DNA from: Moraxella nasicaprae
GTDB lineage: Bacteria > Pseudomonadota > Gammaproteobacteria > Pseudomonadales > Moraxellaceae
Direction of reading: 5' to 3'
Assembly (NCBI RefSeq): GCF_025643275.1
Contig: NZ_CP089977.1
Coordinates: 900,001-932,000 of the forward strand
DNA: 32,000 nucleotides
Shown: positions 8,629-14,358 of the stretch, piece by piece
Layout: every line of letters starts with the position of its first letter
How positions within the stretch are numbered: position 1 is the stretch's first letter
Position numbers and translations under genes: made by a program
Notes under the pieces: model-generated
The model's database searches: none
Seen by the model: the letters and a program-made list of their open reading frames with translations, nothing else
What the model was told of the DNA's origin: nothing

Positions 8629-11600
8629 TTACGCCATTTCTTTCACTTTACTCTCAATAAACGCAATTTCATCATCGCTTAACCCATATTTGGCATAAAG
8701 CTGTTTATCAATCTCAGCAATGGATTGGGACCAATCAATATCAGAATTTTCGGTAAAGTCTTGTAGGGGGACTTTTGACCATTTTTCTTTTGTGTTGTCT
8801 TGGGTAATTTTTAAAACACCCAACATAGTTCGTGCAAATTTGCTTTTTACATATTTTAGGCAATTTTCGGCTTCCAAAAGCGTATTAAAACAACCAATAG
8901 AAATAAAGGTTTCGGTATACCCGATTAGGGGTTCCCCGATTAGGGGTTCCCCGATTAGGGGTGTGCTTAGAACTTCACCAATTGCCCCAGAACCGTTGGC
9001 TTTGGGTAAAATGACCTTAAAAGACCCCAAGTTCTCAGGCTCGCTTAAATAGGCTTTTTTGAACCATTTAAAGCATCTCTCATTTTCAAAACGCCCTAAA
9101 ATCTGAATGTATTCTTCGCCATCATCAGGTTTTTCATCTGTAAATAAATGTGGTAATTTCACAAACGCATTGGAAGCAATTCGTCTATCTGAAATTTGTT
9201 CCATATCTTTTGGATAGTCTCTATAAATTTTATCTGAATAACGATATTGTCCACGATTGGTAACAATTTCATCTAATGTATTTTTCGTTAATTTGCCAAC
9301 TTTTTGAGAAATGGTATTCAATTCATTGAATGTTGTAAATGTACCAATCGCCCCAAACTCCTGATGTATATCACGACATAAAATCGCAATACCACCTTTA
9401 ATATCAGTATTGGCAAAAACATTTTCGGATTTTTGTTCAAAATAAACCACTTTGATATGCTTATCATTAAGCATTTTTTCATTCCAATTTTTATCGGTAC
9501 TTCCTGCATTAAATAAAAATCGTGCTGGCGAAATCAAACAATATTTATCAGAATTTTTTTCAGCCAAATCATAAAAATAATGATAAATTGGGGTATCTTT
9601 TGTGCTTTCGCCCTTTGCATTTTCCTGATAAGGTGGATTACCCACTACAACATCAAATTTCATTGCTTTTCCAAAAATTTCTGTTAATTTTTCATTAAAA
9701 TCTAATTCGCCTTTGGCATAAGGCGTGGTATCCAAATGCACAATATGGCTATGGTCAAACTCACCAGCCTTATCCAATCCCAAAATAAAGTTTTTGGCGA
9801 TATTATAAATAATCTCACTTGGAGCAAAACCATAGACTTGATTGGCAAAAATGTGTTTGAGCCTTGCTTTATCATCAGGAATATGATTTTTTAAACCTTG
9901 ATACAAGCGTTTGACAATCTCGGTAATATACAACCCTGATTTCATATACAAATCGGCAAATGTGATATCAGGATTTTTAAAAATATCAGGATTTTCGCTT
10001 TCAAATTTGTCCATCATCATTTTTACCACCCATTTTGGCGTAAAAATCTGATTGGTTTTTTGTGGCGGAATATAATCAAAAATGTCTTCGCTTTGATTTT
10101 CATCAAAATAGTTGGCTAATGCTTGGCGTTTATTCAAAAACTCTTGCACAGAAGTATCAAACACCTGCTCATCAAAAAGTTGATGTTTGTCTCGCAAAAT
10201 GCGAAATTCATCAATCGTAATGTCTGTAACTTCTTTAAACACACGATCTGAAATATGCATATCAAAATTTGCCAATCTGGTATGTTCATTACCATATGCC
10301 ATCAAAAAAGACGGAATGGTACGACTAAACCCACGCAAACGCCCACGCATATCATCTTCCACCTTATCTTGCTTATTTTGCTCGGCTTTTTGTAGAATGC
10401 TTTCGGTGCTGTTTTGGGTAAATTCAGCGACTTTTATATTGACCGTTTCGCTGATTTTATTTTGCAAATCTTGGGTTATTGATTGTGTTTTGATTTCATA
10501 TTCATTTTGGATTTGCTGTTTTTGATCGTCGGTTTTGGCATTTTTTAATTCATTTTCAAATTGAATTTTGGCAACATTTTGTTCAATTCTGCTGTACTCT
10601 TGAAGTTTTTGCACTTCATTGACAAGCATTTTACTTTGTTCTTTAACCACTTTTTCGGCAAATTTTTCACTTACGCCTATTTCTTTTGCCAAATCTTTAA
10701 AGGCACTTTGCGTATTTTGTGTTAAGACATCGGTTAATTGAGTTGCCAAATTTTGATTATCTAAATTTGCTGTATGAATAATATCGTGCGTGGCGGTTTT
10801 AATATCACCATACACTTTTTCGCCAAAACGAGCATTATTGGTATTTACCACGATTTCATTATCAACCAACGCCTTGCCATTTTCATCTAATTGAACACCC
10901 TGCGTATCAATCGGTGTATTAGTTTTATTGGGCGTCATTTTACCTGCTTCAACAGGATTGATTTGTTCCAAAATTTGACGAATTTCTTCATTGTTTGCCC
11001 CAAAAATCCGCCCCACATTTTGAAATAACAAATTACTCAAAAAGCCTTTTCTAACCACCTCATTGGCTTTAATTATCTTTGGAATGGTCAAAACCTGATT
11101 GACATCAAGCTCTATCATTTTGCCATCTGCATCTTCGGCAATGACTGGAAAAAAGTTTAATAATTCACGGATATTCTCTTCACGATTTTGATTAGTACCG
11201 CTACCGCCCCTTGTATTTTTGGATAAATTATTAGCAAATTCATCATAAATAATGAGCGTGCGTTCTGGTGCAAAATCAAAGACATAGGCATTTTTCTTTT
11301 GATAAACTTGCCCATTTTGTTCATATTGCCACGCATTTTGAACTCTAAATGCCGTTTGCATATACAAAGCAGGCGATTTGACATTAGACAACATCAAAAC
11401 GGCTGTCCACTCTGGAATGGTTACACCTGTGGTTAATTGCCCAACCGATAAAGTAATGGTTTTGTCATTTTCTTTAATTGCTTTTTTGACACGGTTTAGG
11501 GCTGTACTGCTGATGACATCGGTTTCATCGCCACGACCATCGCCTGCCGCCAGCACAATCTTATAATGCTCAAAAACAGGGTGATTTTTTAATAATTTGG

Positions 11601-12924
11601 CTAGGGCTTTGGCACTGTCCACACGATTTAATAACCAAAATGTGTGTTTTAATTCATCTCGCAACGCTTTGGTAGAAAAAGGATATTTTTCATTTTGACT
11701 TAATGTATTAAGCCATTTTTCCACTTCTTTTTTGTGGATAAAATACCCTTTATCATCGGTGGCAAAAAACTCATTTAAATCAAAAGCAAAATCCCTATTT
11801 TCGCCATCAATATCCGCCCCTTGACCGACTTTATCGCTTATCATTTGGCTCATTTGATAGCTAAATAGATTTAAAGTAGGTAAAGCTGCATAGGGATTAT
11901 GTGCCTCGCCGCACCATTGTGATTTGGCTTTTTGCTCATCGGCATAAGTCCAATTATAAATCTCATCTTGGGCAAACTGTCCACTTGCCAATGCCTTAAA
12001 GGGCGTACCTGACAAATGTAAGGTAAAATCACGATTGATTTGCTCAAATGCCAAATCGGTTTTAAAGGTATCCACCCCTTCGTGAGCTTCATCAATCACG
12101 AGTAAGTCCCATTGTAATGATTTAACCCATTCTAATTTATCAAATTTTCCGCCAAAACAAATTGCCCCTTTTAAATCTTGCAGCGAAATAAAAGCAATCA
12201 TCTGTTTTTTGCCATTGGGTTTGCTTGTTTGGTCAAGAAATTCATCACGAGTTAAAACAGGGCGTTCTTTTAGGGTATCCGCTGTTGAAACAAACGCAAA
12301 ATCGCTTTGCCACGCAATGAATTTTTCAAAATCATCAAACCAAGAATGGGCAATGGCTGGGCGATTGGTAACAATCAAAACGGTTTTGGCATTTAACTTT
12401 CTGATTAAATCATAAGTCGTTAAAGTTTTACCAAATCTGGGTTTGGCATTCCACAAAAATTCACCATTTGGATTATTTTGAAAATATGCCAAAGTTTGAT
12501 TAACGGCTTCCGATTGTTCCTGCCGTAATTGATATTCTAATTGTTCGTTTTCTTGATTAAAGTTTTGGGCAACAAAATCATTAAAATCCACCAAACTTTG
12601 CTTGGGTGTGCCATTATAAAAAAACCATTCGGTATTGGGTTTATTTTTTATCTTTTTATATTTTTTTAGATAAGAATGCAATTGGTGGTCGCTAAAAATA
12701 CGATTATCAGCAAATCGTGCCACGCTATGCCACAATAAATCATAATCCAAATCTACCGTGCCCACCTGCTCTTTGATGCGTGTATTAACATCTTGACGCT
12801 CGGTATAGCCGATTTTTATCCAACCTTCTTTGCTTTTAACATCAGGCAAAGCATAAGCATAAATTTGTGGAAAAATCAGTTTACTGGTATTAATTTGGGT
12901 TTTATCAACATTCATAACCATCAC
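8629..12924 (-). CDS. Fusion protein: T5orf172/GIY-YIG-like module, SF2 DEAH helicase, coiled-coil spacer, gamma-class N6-adenine DNA methyltransferase and C-terminal recognition domain (Type ISP-like restriction-modification/defence enzyme)
   Basis: 1431-aa ORF. aa 18-105 read IYAYALP..WIKIGYTERQDVNTRIKEQ..HQLHSYL..NTEWFF (T5orf172/MUG113 pattern). Helicase motifs are Walker A PRFGKT (aa 162-167), VIDEAHEG (276-283), SGTP (305-308) and QTAFRVQN (523-530). aa ~640-860 are Q/N/K/E-rich. Methyltransferase motifs are IFTPKWVV (960-967) and FDVVVGNPPYQ (1090-1100; NPPY is nt 9628-9639). The C-terminal tail LYAKYGLSDDEIAFIE is typical of Eco57I/TaqI-type methylases. The start is ambiguous among GTG 12924, ATG 12921 and ATG 12915; the last has the best spacing from a GGAG. 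Confidence 0.85.
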   Translation of the reverse strand: MMVMNVDKTQINTSKLIFPQIYAYALPDVKSKEGWIKIGYTERQDVNTRIKEQVGTVDLDYDLLWHSVARFADNRIFSDHQLHSYLKKYKKIKNKPNTEWFFYNGTPKQSLVDFNDFVAQNFNQENEQLEYQLRQEQSEAVNQTLAYFQNNPNGEFLWNAKPRFGKTLTTYDLIRKLNAKTVLIVTNRPAIAHSWFDDFEKFIAWQSDFAFVSTADTLKERPVLTRDEFLDQTSKPNGKKQMIAFISLQDLKGAICFGGKFDKLEWVKSLQWDLLVIDEAHEGVDTFKTDLAFEQINRDFTLHLSGTPFKALASGQFAQDEIYNWTYADEQKAKSQWCGEAHNPYAALPTLNLFSYQMSQMISDKVGQGADIDGENRDFAFDLNEFFATDDKGYFIHKKEVEKWLNTLSQNEKYPFSTKALRDELKHTFWLLNRVDSAKALAKLLKNHPVFEHYKIVLAAGDGRGDETDVISSTALNRVKKAIKENDKTITLSVGQLTTGVTIPEWTAVLMLSNVKSPALYMQTAFRVQNAWQYEQNGQVYQKKNAYVFDFAPERTLIIYDEFANNLSKNTRGGSGTNQNREENIRELLNFFPVIAEDADGKMIELDVNQVLTIPKIIKANEVVRKGFLSNLLFQNVGRIFGANNEEIRQILEQINPVEAGKMTPNKTNTPIDTQGVQLDENGKALVDNEIVVNTNNARFGEKVYGDIKTATHDIIHTANLDNQNLATQLTDVLTQNTQSAFKDLAKEIGVSEKFAEKVVKEQSKMLVNEVQKLQEYSRIEQNVAKIQFENELKNAKTDDQKQQIQNEYEIKTQSITQDLQNKISETVNIKVAEFTQNSTESILQKAEQNKQDKVEDDMRGRLRGFSRTIPSFLMAYGNEHTRLANFDMHISDRVFKEVTDITIDEFRILRDKHQLFDEQVFDTSVQEFLNKRQALANYFDENQSEDIFDYIPPQKTNQIFTPKWVVKMMMDKFESENPDIFKNPDITFADLYMKSGLYITEIVKRLYQGLKNHIPDDKARLKHIFANQVYGFAPSEIIYNIAKNFILGLDKAGEFDHSHIVHLDTTPYAKGELDFNEKLTEIFGKAMKFDVVVGNPPYQENAKGESTKDTPIYHYFYDLAEKNSDKYCLISPARFLFNAGSTDKNWNEKMLNDKHIKVVYFEQKSENVFANTDIKGGIAILCRDIHQEFGAIGTFTTFNELNTISQKVGKLTKNTLDEIVTNRGQYRYSDKIYRDYPKDMEQISDRRIASNAFVKLPHLFTDEKPDDGEEYIQILGRFENERCFKWFKKAYLSEPENLGSFKVILPKANGSGAIGEVLSTPLIGEPLIGEPLIGYTETFISIGCFNTLLEAENCLKYVKSKFARTMLGVLKITQDNTKEKWSKVPLQDFTENSDIDWSQSIAEIDKQLYAKYGLSDDEIAFIESKVKEMA
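8921..8963. repeat. In-frame 15-bp tandem repeat (CCCGATTAGGGGTTC x2 plus 13 nt) encoding (PLIGE)x~3
   Basis: The direct tandem copies at 8921-8935 and 8936-8950 are identical. A third copy at 8951-8963 diverges at 8964. The repeat translates on the minus strand as PLIGEPLIGEPLIG (aa 1322-1335 of the 1431-aa protein). Confidence 0.95.
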
Positions 12925-13835
12925 TCCATAAAATTAACCAATTTTCCCGTTTGCCAATCTTTGATTTTGACAAGTCGTCCTTGATGAACCATAATCTCTT
13001 GTGGTTTTGCTGTATCAAATAAGTCATCTTGAGGATAAGAAACGAGTTGTCTTTTTTGTGATAAGGGAATGGTGCAAGTCAATCCATCCATTTGAAAAAT
13101 GTTATAACTGATGATTTGGGCGACTTGCAGCAATTCATCGATGGACGGCTTGCTCTGCCATTTGTCCATATAAAAATCATAATAGGTTAATAACAAGTTT
13201 TCCCTTGCCAATAATAAAGAGTCGCCATTCCATTCAAATCCATAGCTTGCTTGATAGGCTTTTTTAGCCCAATATTGCCATTGTTTTGGATTGTCAATTT
13301 CTTGATTGATGCGCCTTAATTTCCTATCCAAAAATCCTGCTCGCTCATTCAATTCAATCAATTCGCCTGTTGCCATTTCATAGCGATTGGCAAGATAAGG
13401 GGCTTCACCACAAGTGATTTCAAGCCAAGTTCTCCCAATATAGGTTTTTAAATCATCATCTTTAAAATTTTTGTCCAAAGCATCGTTTTGTTTTTTGACA
13501 ATCCAACTGGGGGTAAAAACTTCTGCCTTAGATTTGGTGCGTTCTTTTTGTTGTGCCTTGGATTTTAAAGCTCTGGGAATGATTAAATTCCCCTGATTGC
13601 CTGTAATCAAATCAGGGGTGATGGGGCAAGTTGCGCCATACTTTTTACCAAGCCCAATATAATTGTCATTTGCCCAAATAATATTCTTTTTCTTTTTGCT
13701 ATAATAAGAAGAGGTTCGGTCTTTTAATAAAACTTCCAAGATTTCTGGAGAGTATTGATACAAATCATTCTCCGACAAATTGGCAATATCAAAATCAATT
13801 GTCATCTTTTGGGGCGTAACTTGTTTATCAATCAT
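12921..13835 (-). CDS. Methyltransferase-like protein lacking the (D/N)PPY catalytic motif; first gene of the two-gene operon
   Basis: 304-aa ORF with ATG at 13833-13835, preceded by GGGGG 6 nt upstream. AEVFTPSWIVKK (aa 104-115) resembles gamma-MTase motif X and parallels IFTPKWVVKM in the downstream protein. WLEITCGEAPYL (137-148) resembles M.TaqI motif I (VLEPACAHGPFL). There is no PP dipeptide anywhere in the protein. Its stop TGA (12921-12923) overlaps the start of the 1431-aa gene. Confidence 0.75.
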   Translation of the reverse strand: MIDKQVTPQKMTIDFDIANLSENDLYQYSPEILEVLLKDRTSSYYSKKKKNIIWANDNYIGLGKKYGATCPITPDLITGNQGNLIIPRALKSKAQQKERTKSKAEVFTPSWIVKKQNDALDKNFKDDDLKTYIGRTWLEITCGEAPYLANRYEMATGELIELNERAGFLDRKLRRINQEIDNPKQWQYWAKKAYQASYGFEWNGDSLLLARENLLLTYYDFYMDKWQSKPSIDELLQVAQIISYNIFQMDGLTCTIPLSQKRQLVSYPQDDLFDTAKPQEIMVHQGRLVKIKDWQTGKLVNFME

Positions 13836-13855
13836 TGCAAGCCCCCAAATTTAGA

Positions 13856-13892
13856 CAACAAAAAACCTACTTCCAAGCGGAAGCAGGTTGTT
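13856..13892 (-). terminator. Intrinsic terminator/attenuator-like hairpin ~25 nt upstream of the operon ATG
   Basis: Minus strand reads AACAA-CCTGCTTCC-GCTT-GGAAGTAGG-TTTTTTGTTG: a 9-bp stem with one G-U pair, a 4-nt loop and a 6-U tract. Confidence 0.65.
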
Positions 13893-13950
13893 AGATGATG
13901 AATGATTAGGCTGTTAAAAGATTGATTTTTAACAAAAAAGTTATGTGGTT

Positions 13951-14160
13951 TTAGCTGAACGGCTGAACGGCTGAACGGCTGAACGGCTGAACGGCTGAAC
14001 GGCTGAACGGCTGAACGGCTGAACGGCTGAACGGCTGAACGGCTGAACGGCTGAACGGCTGAACGGCTGAACGGCTGAACGGCTGAACGGCTGAACGGCT
14101 GAACGGCTGAACGGCTGAACGGCTGAACATTATCGTTTGTCTATCAAAAATAGCAAGCAT
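13951..14160 (-). other. Repeat-containing upstream ORF (candidate regulatory leader ORF, not a structural protein)
   Basis: The ATG at 14158-14160 opens MLAIFDRQTIMF, followed by (SRSAVQPF)x7 encoded by the 8-nt repeat. In the present frame the ORF stops at TAA 13951-13953. There is no strong Shine-Dalgarno sequence. Confidence 0.3.
13954..14128. repeat. Octanucleotide microsatellite (GCTGAACG): 21 complete units plus 7 nt
   Basis: Perfect tandem 8-mers counted directly over 175 nt. The minus-strand unit is CGTTCAGC, which has no stop codon in any frame. Confidence 0.98.
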
Positions 14161-14224
14161 ATTTTAAGAAAAATCCAACAAAATACGCCCTATACTACAA
14201 TATTTTTGCACAGAATTAAAGTGG

Positions 14225-14259
14225 TAAAAAAATCCCCCAAACAACTTGCTTGGGGGATT
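14225..14259 (-). terminator. Rho-independent terminator of tRNA-Ser
   Basis: Minus strand reads ATCCCCCAA-GCAAGTTGT-TTGGGGGAT followed by a T-run of 6-7, beginning 9 nt after the tRNA CCA end. Confidence 0.8.
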
Positions 14260-14267
14260 ATCGTATA

Positions 14268-14358
14268 TGGCGGTGAAGAAGGGATTTGAACCCTTGATAC
14301 GCTATTAACGTATACACACTTTCCAGGCGTGCGCTTTCGACCACTCAGCCACTTCACC
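14268..14358 (-). tRNA. tRNA-Ser (anticodon GGA), class II with long variable arm, CCA encoded
   Basis: I folded the minus-strand sequence by hand. Acceptor stem is GGTGAAG/CTTCACC. The D stem has 3 bp. The anticodon stem is CACGC/GTGTG with loop CTGGAAA, giving anticodon GGA. The variable arm is 5 bp (ATACG/CGTAT). The T arm is AAGGG-TTCAAAT-CCCTT. The discriminator is G, followed by CCA. Total length 91 nt. Confidence 0.93.

Follow-up and report, generated by a model that had tools for sequence, protein, structure and literature searches.

What does a long tandem repeat do upstream of an operon when it lies in neither of the operon's genes? The question is raised by a 32,000-nucleotide (nt) stretch of Moraxella nasicaprae DNA (NZ_CP089977.1 positions 900,001-932,000, GCF_025643275.1, forward strand), here called the window, in whose coordinates all positions are given. 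On its minus strand, a tract of 8-nt units precedes a two-gene restriction-modification-like operon that encodes proteins of 304 and then 1431 amino acids (aa). Our reading, to which we assign a probability of roughly 0.6 from the sequences compared, is that the region in front of the operon may be a phase-variable leader switch of the kind known from the pil1 and pil3 loci of Streptococcus gallolyticus. We describe the anatomy of this leader, its conservation across lineages, and the polymorphism of tract length between strains of related species. The elements on which the argument turns are the following.

13954-14128, minus strand: perfect repeat tract, unit GTTCAGCC on this strand; Tandem Repeats Finder gives period 8, 21.9 copies, 100% matches
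13951-14160, minus strand: upstream open reading frame (uORF) as sequenced, from ATG 14160-14158 through 69 codons to TAA 13953-13951
13941-13953, minus strand: stops of the two OFF frames, TAA 13953-13951 and TAA 13943-13941
13832-13957, minus strand: read-through (ON) frame, 42 codons across both hairpin arms to TGA 13834-13832
13854-13889, minus strand: intrinsic-terminator-like hairpin plus TTTTTTGTTGTC, core stem 13887-13879 / 13874-13866, loop GCTT
12921-13835, minus strand: gene 1, 304 aa, protein identical to M. nasicaprae WP_263077189.1, annotated 'restriction endonuclease'
8629-12924, minus strand: gene 2, 1431 aa, with T5orf172, ResIII helicase and Eco57I-type N6-adenine methylase domains (Pfam)

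A first-pass annotation of this DNA, made from the letters, had claimed a tract of 21 full units plus 7 nt, a stop-free unit, a uORF ending just past the tract, two early exit frames and a 42-codon one, and a terminator distinct from that of the neighbouring tRNA-Ser gene. All of this is borne out by Tandem Repeats Finder, by translation and by a terminator scan that finds both terminators. The tract lies 118 nt upstream of gene 1 and in a different frame from it. On the minus strand it is free of stops in all three frames, and it contains no start codon. A second ATG of the uORF, at 14130-14128, is in frame with the first. From the ends of the two OFF-frame stops to the hairpin there are 63 and 53 nt. 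The ON frame reads VQLKPHNFFVKNQSFNSLIIHHLTTCFRLEVGFLLSKFGGLQ, and its TGA (13834-13832) overlaps the ATG of gene 1 (13835-13833) as ATGA; this stop-start overlap is present in the ON frame only. The hairpin itself (13889-13864) has the form CCTGCTTCC-GCTT-GGAAGTAGG followed by six T, with an RNAfold energy of -14 to -17 kcal/mol. Simulated changes of unit number reproduced the claimed switch of frame: the loss of one unit or the gain of two brings the ATG-initiated frame into read-through, with 20 and 23 units giving read-through and 21 and 22 the two OFF states. The sequenced allele is the predicted OFF allele.

These elements suggest the following mechanism. The short uORF, which we infer to be both transcribed and translated, would begin with ATG 14160, or with ATG 14130 in the same frame, and run into the hypermutable 8-nt repeat. 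Each unit gained or lost would shift the frame in which ribosomes exit the tract. In two of the three frames, that of the sequenced allele included, ribosomes would come to a stop 0-10 nt past the end of the tract, with more than 50 nt left to the hairpin; the terminator would then form, and little transcript would reach the operon (OFF). In the third frame, entered by the loss of one unit or the gain of two, ribosomes would trail RNA polymerase over both arms of the hairpin. The hairpin presumably terminates transcription, and the transit of ribosomes would relieve this termination. Ribosomes would finish at the TGA overlapping the operon ATG and may also pass to gene 1 by stop-start coupling, with probable reinitiation at the ATGA (ON).

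The evidence that carries this reading comes from homologous loci. The comparison set comprised six Moraxella lineages, M. nasicaprae among them, and one Lactobacillaceae metagenome genome (L030). The repeats found in the other members of the set are as follows.

M. porci: unit GTTCAGC, 13.4 units
M. bovoculi: unit GTTCAGC, 8.9-24.9 units
M. haemolytica: unit GTTCAGCC, 10.4 units
M. lacunata: unit CCTGCGTA, 16.1 units
Two Moraxella metagenome genomes (L001, L003): unit GTCAAGC, contigs break in the tract
Lactobacillaceae metagenome genome L030: ATG, then (ACAGA) x11.8

Differing repeats, with units of 8, 7 or 5 nt, are thus found at the same place before the orthologous gene pair in seven lineages. 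All five repeat units have a length that is not a multiple of 3, and all are stop-free on the sense strand. Each Moraxella leader has two exit frames that stop 0-31 nt after the tract, and a third that is open over 105-138 nt across the hairpin and the T-run. This ON frame ends in the ATGA overlap in five of the six Moraxella lineages (5/7 lineages overall); in M. lacunata it ends with a TAA 4 nt before the ATG. The Lactobacillaceae locus follows a similar plan, as two frames stop within 7 nt and the third crosses a strong terminator, ending 8 nt past the start of the homologous gene.

Hairpins were folded locus by locus. They occur at the same place in seven other loci from six other lineages, and their sequences are lineage-specific, while the structure and the T-run persist. 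The energies in the Moraxella leaders are -7 to -17 kcal/mol, and across loci the OFF stops end 21-65 nt before the hairpins. The Moraxella spacers between tract and gene are 54-67% identical, differ in length, and are no closer to each other than to the unrelated spacer of L030. Homologous loci had been proposed as a check on the open frame, and despite this low identity the read-through frame of the relatives is still open and still ends at the start codon. One short motif in the spacer can be followed through the alignment.

13922-13931, minus strand: leader motif TAAAAATCAA, from the alignment of leaders and the distances to the ATG

The pattern T-AAA-A..C.A is invariant in all seven Moraxella leaders and always lies in the same phase of the ON frame. 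The distance from TAAAA to the ATG is 96, 93, 90, 117 and 87 nt, in every case a multiple of 3, with sub-intervals in all residue classes. The motif, TAAAA(A/G)(T/C)CAA, sits 18-31 nt after the tract. In the minimum-energy fold of the window TAAAAATCAA pairs with the start-codon region; this pairing was rejected as a conserved feature, as it is impossible in the orthologues.

The length of the tract varies. In M. bovoculi, assembly CP195518 has 8.86 units, which corresponds to the ON frame, and JAAIVK01 and CP011374 have 16.86 and 24.86 units, the two OFF frames; the flanks of the three are near-identical. Such strains, with 9, 17 and 25 units, would represent natural ON, OFF and OFF alleles and make a directly testable system. 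In M. catarrhalis, a GCGTCAA tract has been reported 122 bp upstream of the 'restriction endonuclease subunit M' gene RS08500, with 5, 28, 2, 12 and 11 units in five closed genomes (Tan et al. 2020, PMC7302503). It was judged highly likely to be phase variable, then excluded because the open reading frame (ORF) was truncated, and no uORF, terminator or mechanism was proposed for it (PMC7302503). Annotation, tract position and repeat unit suggest that RS08500 belongs to the same family as gene 1: the genus is the same, the 122 bp compare with 105-138 nt in our set, and GCGTCAA is a rotation of the GTCAAGC of L001 and L003. Unit number, whose invariance would have spoken against a switch, differs between strains by whole units in these related species (M. 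bovoculi; M. catarrhalis, 2-28 units).

Short-read and Logan contigs (L001, L003, L047, L051, L147-L151, L156) end in the tract, about 100-300 nt upstream of gene 1, and draft assemblies thus systematically lose both the unit count and the upstream promoter region. These contigs supplied spacers, not unit counts. The 3.86 units of L155 were not counted, as this is a k-mer assembly and may be collapsed. Other upstream repeats are on record in M. catarrhalis 25239, before gor (GACTGTTT, 25 bp), a permease gene (GTTC, 68 bp) and modO (CAACG) (PMC7302503); these may share the leader-ORF design.

Several points weigh against the leader switch. Length variation covers related species only, and L047, the sole near relative of the window, has its contig break in the tract. 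At the single locus, moreover, the open frame is not significant (P about 0.08-0.17). When the 118-nt spacer between tract and gene 1 was shuffled, the specific ATGA frame was open in 8% (mononucleotide shuffling) to 17% (dinucleotide shuffling) of cases and any frame in 23-47%; the first-pass remark that the open frame seems unlikely to be chance was therefore overstated for the window alone. The full pattern, with one frame open and the other two stopping within 31 nt, arose in 7-10% of the window shuffles. Among seven orthologues that have no repeat, two likewise carry, by chance, an open frame of 35 codons or more with its end at ATGA. In favour of the switch, repeat-less orthologues are without the hairpin leader altogether, and the 7/7 repeat-bearing lineages with an open frame, set against these 2/7, give P of about 0.01. 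Per locus, the full pattern is seen in 4-10% of shuffles, and the product over seven lineages is about 2e-8, a figure that overstates the significance, given that the lineages are related and that the thresholds were set with the data already in view. The significance of the open frame comes from the cross-species comparison only.

The main conflict with the leader-switch model lies at the other end of the tract, where promoter-like sequence and the start codons of the uORF overlap. Two candidate promoters have to be considered.

14192-14220, minus strand: candidate upstream promoter TTTAAT-N17-TAGTAT, 7/12 matches, read from the sequence
14129-14156, minus strand: sigma-70-like motif TTGCTA-N16-GATAAT, from the promoter scan; ends at the first repeat unit

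The first is the sole candidate promoter in the window whose transcript would include the uORF start codons. It is weak, with its 7/12 matches, and scores below the threshold of the promoter scan. Upstream candidates are present in all five species with upstream sequence, namely TTTAAT-17-TATAAT in M. porci (by eye), TTGACA-17-TAGTAT in M. lacunata, and others in M. haemolytica and M. bovoculi. The second motif (14156-14129) overlaps both ATGs of the uORF, and it has tract-adjacent counterparts in M. porci (TTGCAA-16-GATAAT), M. haemolytica (TTGCAA-16-TATAAT), M. bovoculi (TTGACA-16-TATCCT) and, in weaker form, M. lacunata, so that it is conserved in four or five species. The window, M. porci and M. 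haemolytica share the hexamers and their spacing but not the 16 nt in between; to judge from the alignment, this is the signature of a real promoter. If the tract-adjacent motif is the working promoter, the uORF could not be translated, since the tract has no start codon of its own. No convincing Shine-Dalgarno sequence was seen at any of the uORF ATG candidates inspected. Leaderless initiation at either uORF ATG was considered and rejected, as inspection of the sequence shows no -10 hexamer at the required distance.

Most of the candidate uORF ATGs form the G-extended end of a -10-like hexamer, (G/T/C)ATAAT-G. This applies to the tract-proximal ATG in three species and to the sole ATG in M. 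lacunata and M. bovoculi. The distal ATG of the three species lies 32 nt before the tract, directly upstream of the -35-like TTGC(A/T)A. The sites of overlap are 14128-14134 and 14158-14160 in the window, 5706 and 5736 in L004, 2781 and 2811 in L050, 2735 in L049, and 2741 in L048.

These observations favour a reading in which the leader is untranslated. TTGCTA-N16-GATAAT would be the operon promoter, transcription would start in the first unit, and tract length would tune expression gradedly and independently of translation, by acting on, for instance, mRNA stability, the pausing of RNA polymerase or a structure upstream of the attenuator. Such a reading is consistent with the conservation of the -35 and -10 hexamers beside the tract, at 16-17 nt spacing and with a varying spacer, and with the uORF ATGs being without Shine-Dalgarno sequences. 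It also fits the similarity between the window, M. porci and M. haemolytica leaders, which begins at the tract-adjacent promoter-like motif, as expected of a mobile cassette with its own promoter. Upstream repeats, furthermore, are known in Moraxella (PMC7302503). However, an untranslated leader leaves unexplained why, in all seven lineages, one frame runs open as far as the start codon when the other two close at once, why the distance from TAAAA to the ATG is kept at multiples of 3 by compensating indels, why the frame ends in ATGA, and why no unit has a length divisible by 3. Pairing of the tract RNA with the arms of the terminator was not evident in the window fold or on inspection. We consider this reading unlikely, though not negligible.

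Another possibility is that the hairpin is an insulator only, that the operon promoter overlaps or follows it, and that the repeat and uORF are hypermutable with little effect on expression. There are promoter-like matches over the hairpin in M. bovoculi (TTTGCA-17-TAAAAT, 9/12) and in the window (TTGGAA-N17-TAAATT, about 13876-13847, 8/12, by eye), and directly after the terminator T-run there is a conserved C(C/T)AAAA(T/C)TT (window 13846-13856). On the other hand, the -35 part is not conserved in M. porci, M. lacunata, M. haemolytica and L001, and the position of the start in the window would be awkward with respect to the ribosome site of gene 1.

13842-13846, minus strand: Shine-Dalgarno-like GGGGG, 6 nt before the ATG of gene 1

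The transcript would start in this GGGGG run, leaving a leader of about 5 nt from which most of the Shine-Dalgarno-like site is lost. In the orthologues, a GGCGG or GGTGG begins 11 nt upstream of the ATG of the gene 1 homologue. The perfect 22-unit tract, the polymorphism between strains and the occurrence of different units in six lineages argue for selection on a switch, and the frame pattern is again left unexplained. An insulator of this kind is distinctly improbable. Finally, it is very improbable that promoter, tract and terminator form a separate small RNA gene whose product, consisting mostly of repeats, acts in trans, with the operon expressed by read-through only: such a unit is indeed bounded by a promoter-like motif immediately before it and by a terminator about 240 nt further on, but an Rfam search of the leader matched no family, the repeats are wholly different between lineages (GTTCAGCC, GTCAAGC, CCTGCGTA) and allow no conserved target pairing, the unit invariably accompanies this one gene family, and the frame pattern would have no explanation.

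The leader switch is thus our preferred reading. As regards the proposal of the first-pass annotation, its anatomy is confirmed and is joined by the homologous loci and the variation between strains; the novelty of the design and the argument from chance at a single locus did not hold, and the uORF ATGs lie inside a promoter-like motif. A broader reading, to which we would give even odds, is that the repeat, leader ORF and terminator form a self-contained cassette attached to a widespread two-gene family in at least six Moraxella lineages and, independently, in one Lactobacillaceae. The system, and possibly the methylome, would then be phase-variable without any repeat in an enzyme gene, and through the ATGA overlap one frameshift would control both termination and translation initiation.

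The upstream boundary of the leader is formed by a tRNA gene and its terminator.

14268-14358, minus strand: tRNA-Ser(GGA), found by ARAGORN, with an Rfam tRNA match
14231-14259, minus strand: intrinsic terminator of tRNA-Ser, from the terminator scan, 13-pair stem

Together (14231-14358) they insulate the switch from read-through transcription.

Downstream, the start of gene 2 overlaps the stop of gene 1 as GTGA, with more ATGs within a few codons of the junction. The two genes occur together in every relative in which the downstream gene is visible. The gene 1 family has more than 7000 matches, with about 55% identity across phyla. That Moraxella, Firmicutes, Spirochaetes and Verrucomicrobia share about 55% identity, and that 25 sequences have more than 80 invariant columns, is extraordinary for a component of a restriction system. 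A Pfam search found no domain in gene 1, an NCBIfam search assigned it to no family, and a sequence search of solved structures found no relative of either protein of the operon. The AlphaFold model of gene 1 has a mean pLDDT of 60, and a fold search was therefore skipped. Motifs of the family such as EVFTP and CGEAPY may, on our reading, be degenerate gamma-class methylase motifs. Exact-protein look-ups with the window protein, P0135 and P0021 returned no contigs. Gene 2 matches the PADLOC models REase_MTase_IIG and MTase_II.

Neither gene contains a repeat of a non-triplet unit. The sole other tandem repeat of the window is a perfect 15-nt array (2.9 copies, 8920-8962) near the C terminus of gene 2, which is in frame, encodes PLIG-EPLIG-EPLIG and falls within what is presumed to be the target-recognition region of the 1431-aa enzyme. 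With a unit that is a multiple of 3, the array cannot switch the frame, although its length could still vary.

A metagenome scan gave 78 loci of the family and one further repeat-bearing leader (L051, similar to M. porci). The plasmid homologues are all from Firmicutes, Bifidobacterium or Treponema, none from Moraxella. Three of them were examined, with no repeat scan made; they have short intergenic regions or, in Enterococcus faecium, the gene of a helix-turn-helix regulator upstream. This small gene stands before the homologous pair in enterococcal plasmids (L159 553-756, E. faecium NZ_CP116515), which suggests regulation by a controller protein where Moraxella has the repeat leader. In Neisseria iguanae NZ_PXYY01000009, an (AGGC) x7.2 repeat (L040 7717-7745) lies about 0.9 kb downstream of a decayed, frameshifted homologue of gene 1.

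How does such a locus compare with known systems? Phasevarions are controlled by phase-variable Type III mod, Type I hsdS or hsdM, or Type IIG genes, for example modM of M. catarrhalis and cj0031 of Campylobacter jejuni. The Moraxella locus would be similar in that repeats drive stochastic ON/OFF expression of a methyltransferase-containing restriction-modification system, so that genome-wide methylation could switch. However, phasevarions carry the repeat in the ORF, or the promoter, of the methylase or specificity gene, where it frameshifts the enzyme itself, whereas the enzyme genes of the window have no switching repeat and it is a separate leader ORF that would be frameshifted. Repeats upstream of genes are found at hmw1A and hmw2A of Haemophilus influenzae (7-bp repeats) and in the leader of uspA2 of M. 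catarrhalis (AGAT repeats). As in the window, a repeat of 4-8 nt is placed between promoter and start codon, and uspA2 belongs to the same genus; in these cases, however, the effect is graded with length and involves no described leader ORF or terminator, whereas the frame structure of the window points to translation. The uspA2 repeat is also listed in Table 1 of PMC7302503. With the attenuators of trp, his and pheA the locus would share the principle that a downstream intrinsic terminator forms or not according to where the ribosome stands on a leader ORF. There, charged tRNA is sensed via regulatory codons and antiterminator hairpins take part; here, the proposal is that a heritable frameshift sets the state and the ribosome itself occupies the terminator.

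Surveys for phase-variable restriction-modification systems appear to search inside the mod, hsdS and hsdM genes (e.g. PMC5909438, PMC7383803). A leader-ORF switch would escape surveys limited to repeats inside the restriction-modification ORFs, and the homologous M. catarrhalis tract was indeed catalogued and then set aside (PMC7302503). For veterinary Moraxella pathogens the matter bears on phage resistance, and possibly on gene regulation of the phasevarion type.

The closest known system is that of the pil1 and pil3 pilus loci. The first-pass annotation knew of no repeat-gated design of leader ORF and terminator, but such a design had been described by Danne et al. (2014, PMC3894217), who showed by experiment that expression is switched by GCAGA repeats within the ORF of a leader peptide, with a stem-loop terminator downstream of this ORF. 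Expression was low when the leader peptide ended 28 nt or more ahead of the terminator and high when a frameshifted one ended at or in the hairpin; the model was confirmed by terminator-deletion, ATG-knockout and triple-stop mutants (PMC3894217). Thus pil1 and pil3 provide an experimental precedent for every step of the mechanism proposed here except the stop-start coupling at ATGA.

The two systems agree in having a repeat of non-triplet unit in a leader ORF and a stem-loop terminator with a T-run before the first structural gene, in that the frame decides between a stop far ahead of the hairpin and one inside or past it, and in that tract length differs between isolates (for Moraxella, in related species). 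Even the size of the tract is similar, 22 units for pil1 and pil3 and 21.9 in the window. They differ in setting, a 5-nt GCAGA repeat before a pilus operon in a Gram-positive bacterium as against 7-8 nt units before a restriction-modification operon in a Gram-negative one. The pil1 and pil3 leader ORF has a clear ribosome-binding site and a mapped transcription start, whereas the Moraxella leader is read from sequence alone and has start codons without a ribosome-binding site and an overlapping promoter-like motif. Both out-of-frame states are high in pil1 and pil3, whereas one frame in three reads through in Moraxella, and there, unlike in pil1 and pil3, the ON frame passes the whole hairpin to the ATGA stop-start overlap.

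In the literature searched, no leader-peptide repeat switch is described for restriction-modification systems or for Moraxella. The mechanism is already known (2014), and a tract upstream of an apparent M. catarrhalis homologue is on record (2020). New, within the same literature, is the combination of a leader-ORF and terminator architecture on a restriction-modification operon, in Gram-negative bacteria, with a conserved ATGA and recurring across lineages. If the reading is true, pil1-type attenuation would be a portable module put to Gram-negative use in genome defence or epigenetic regulation, rather than a streptococcal curiosity.

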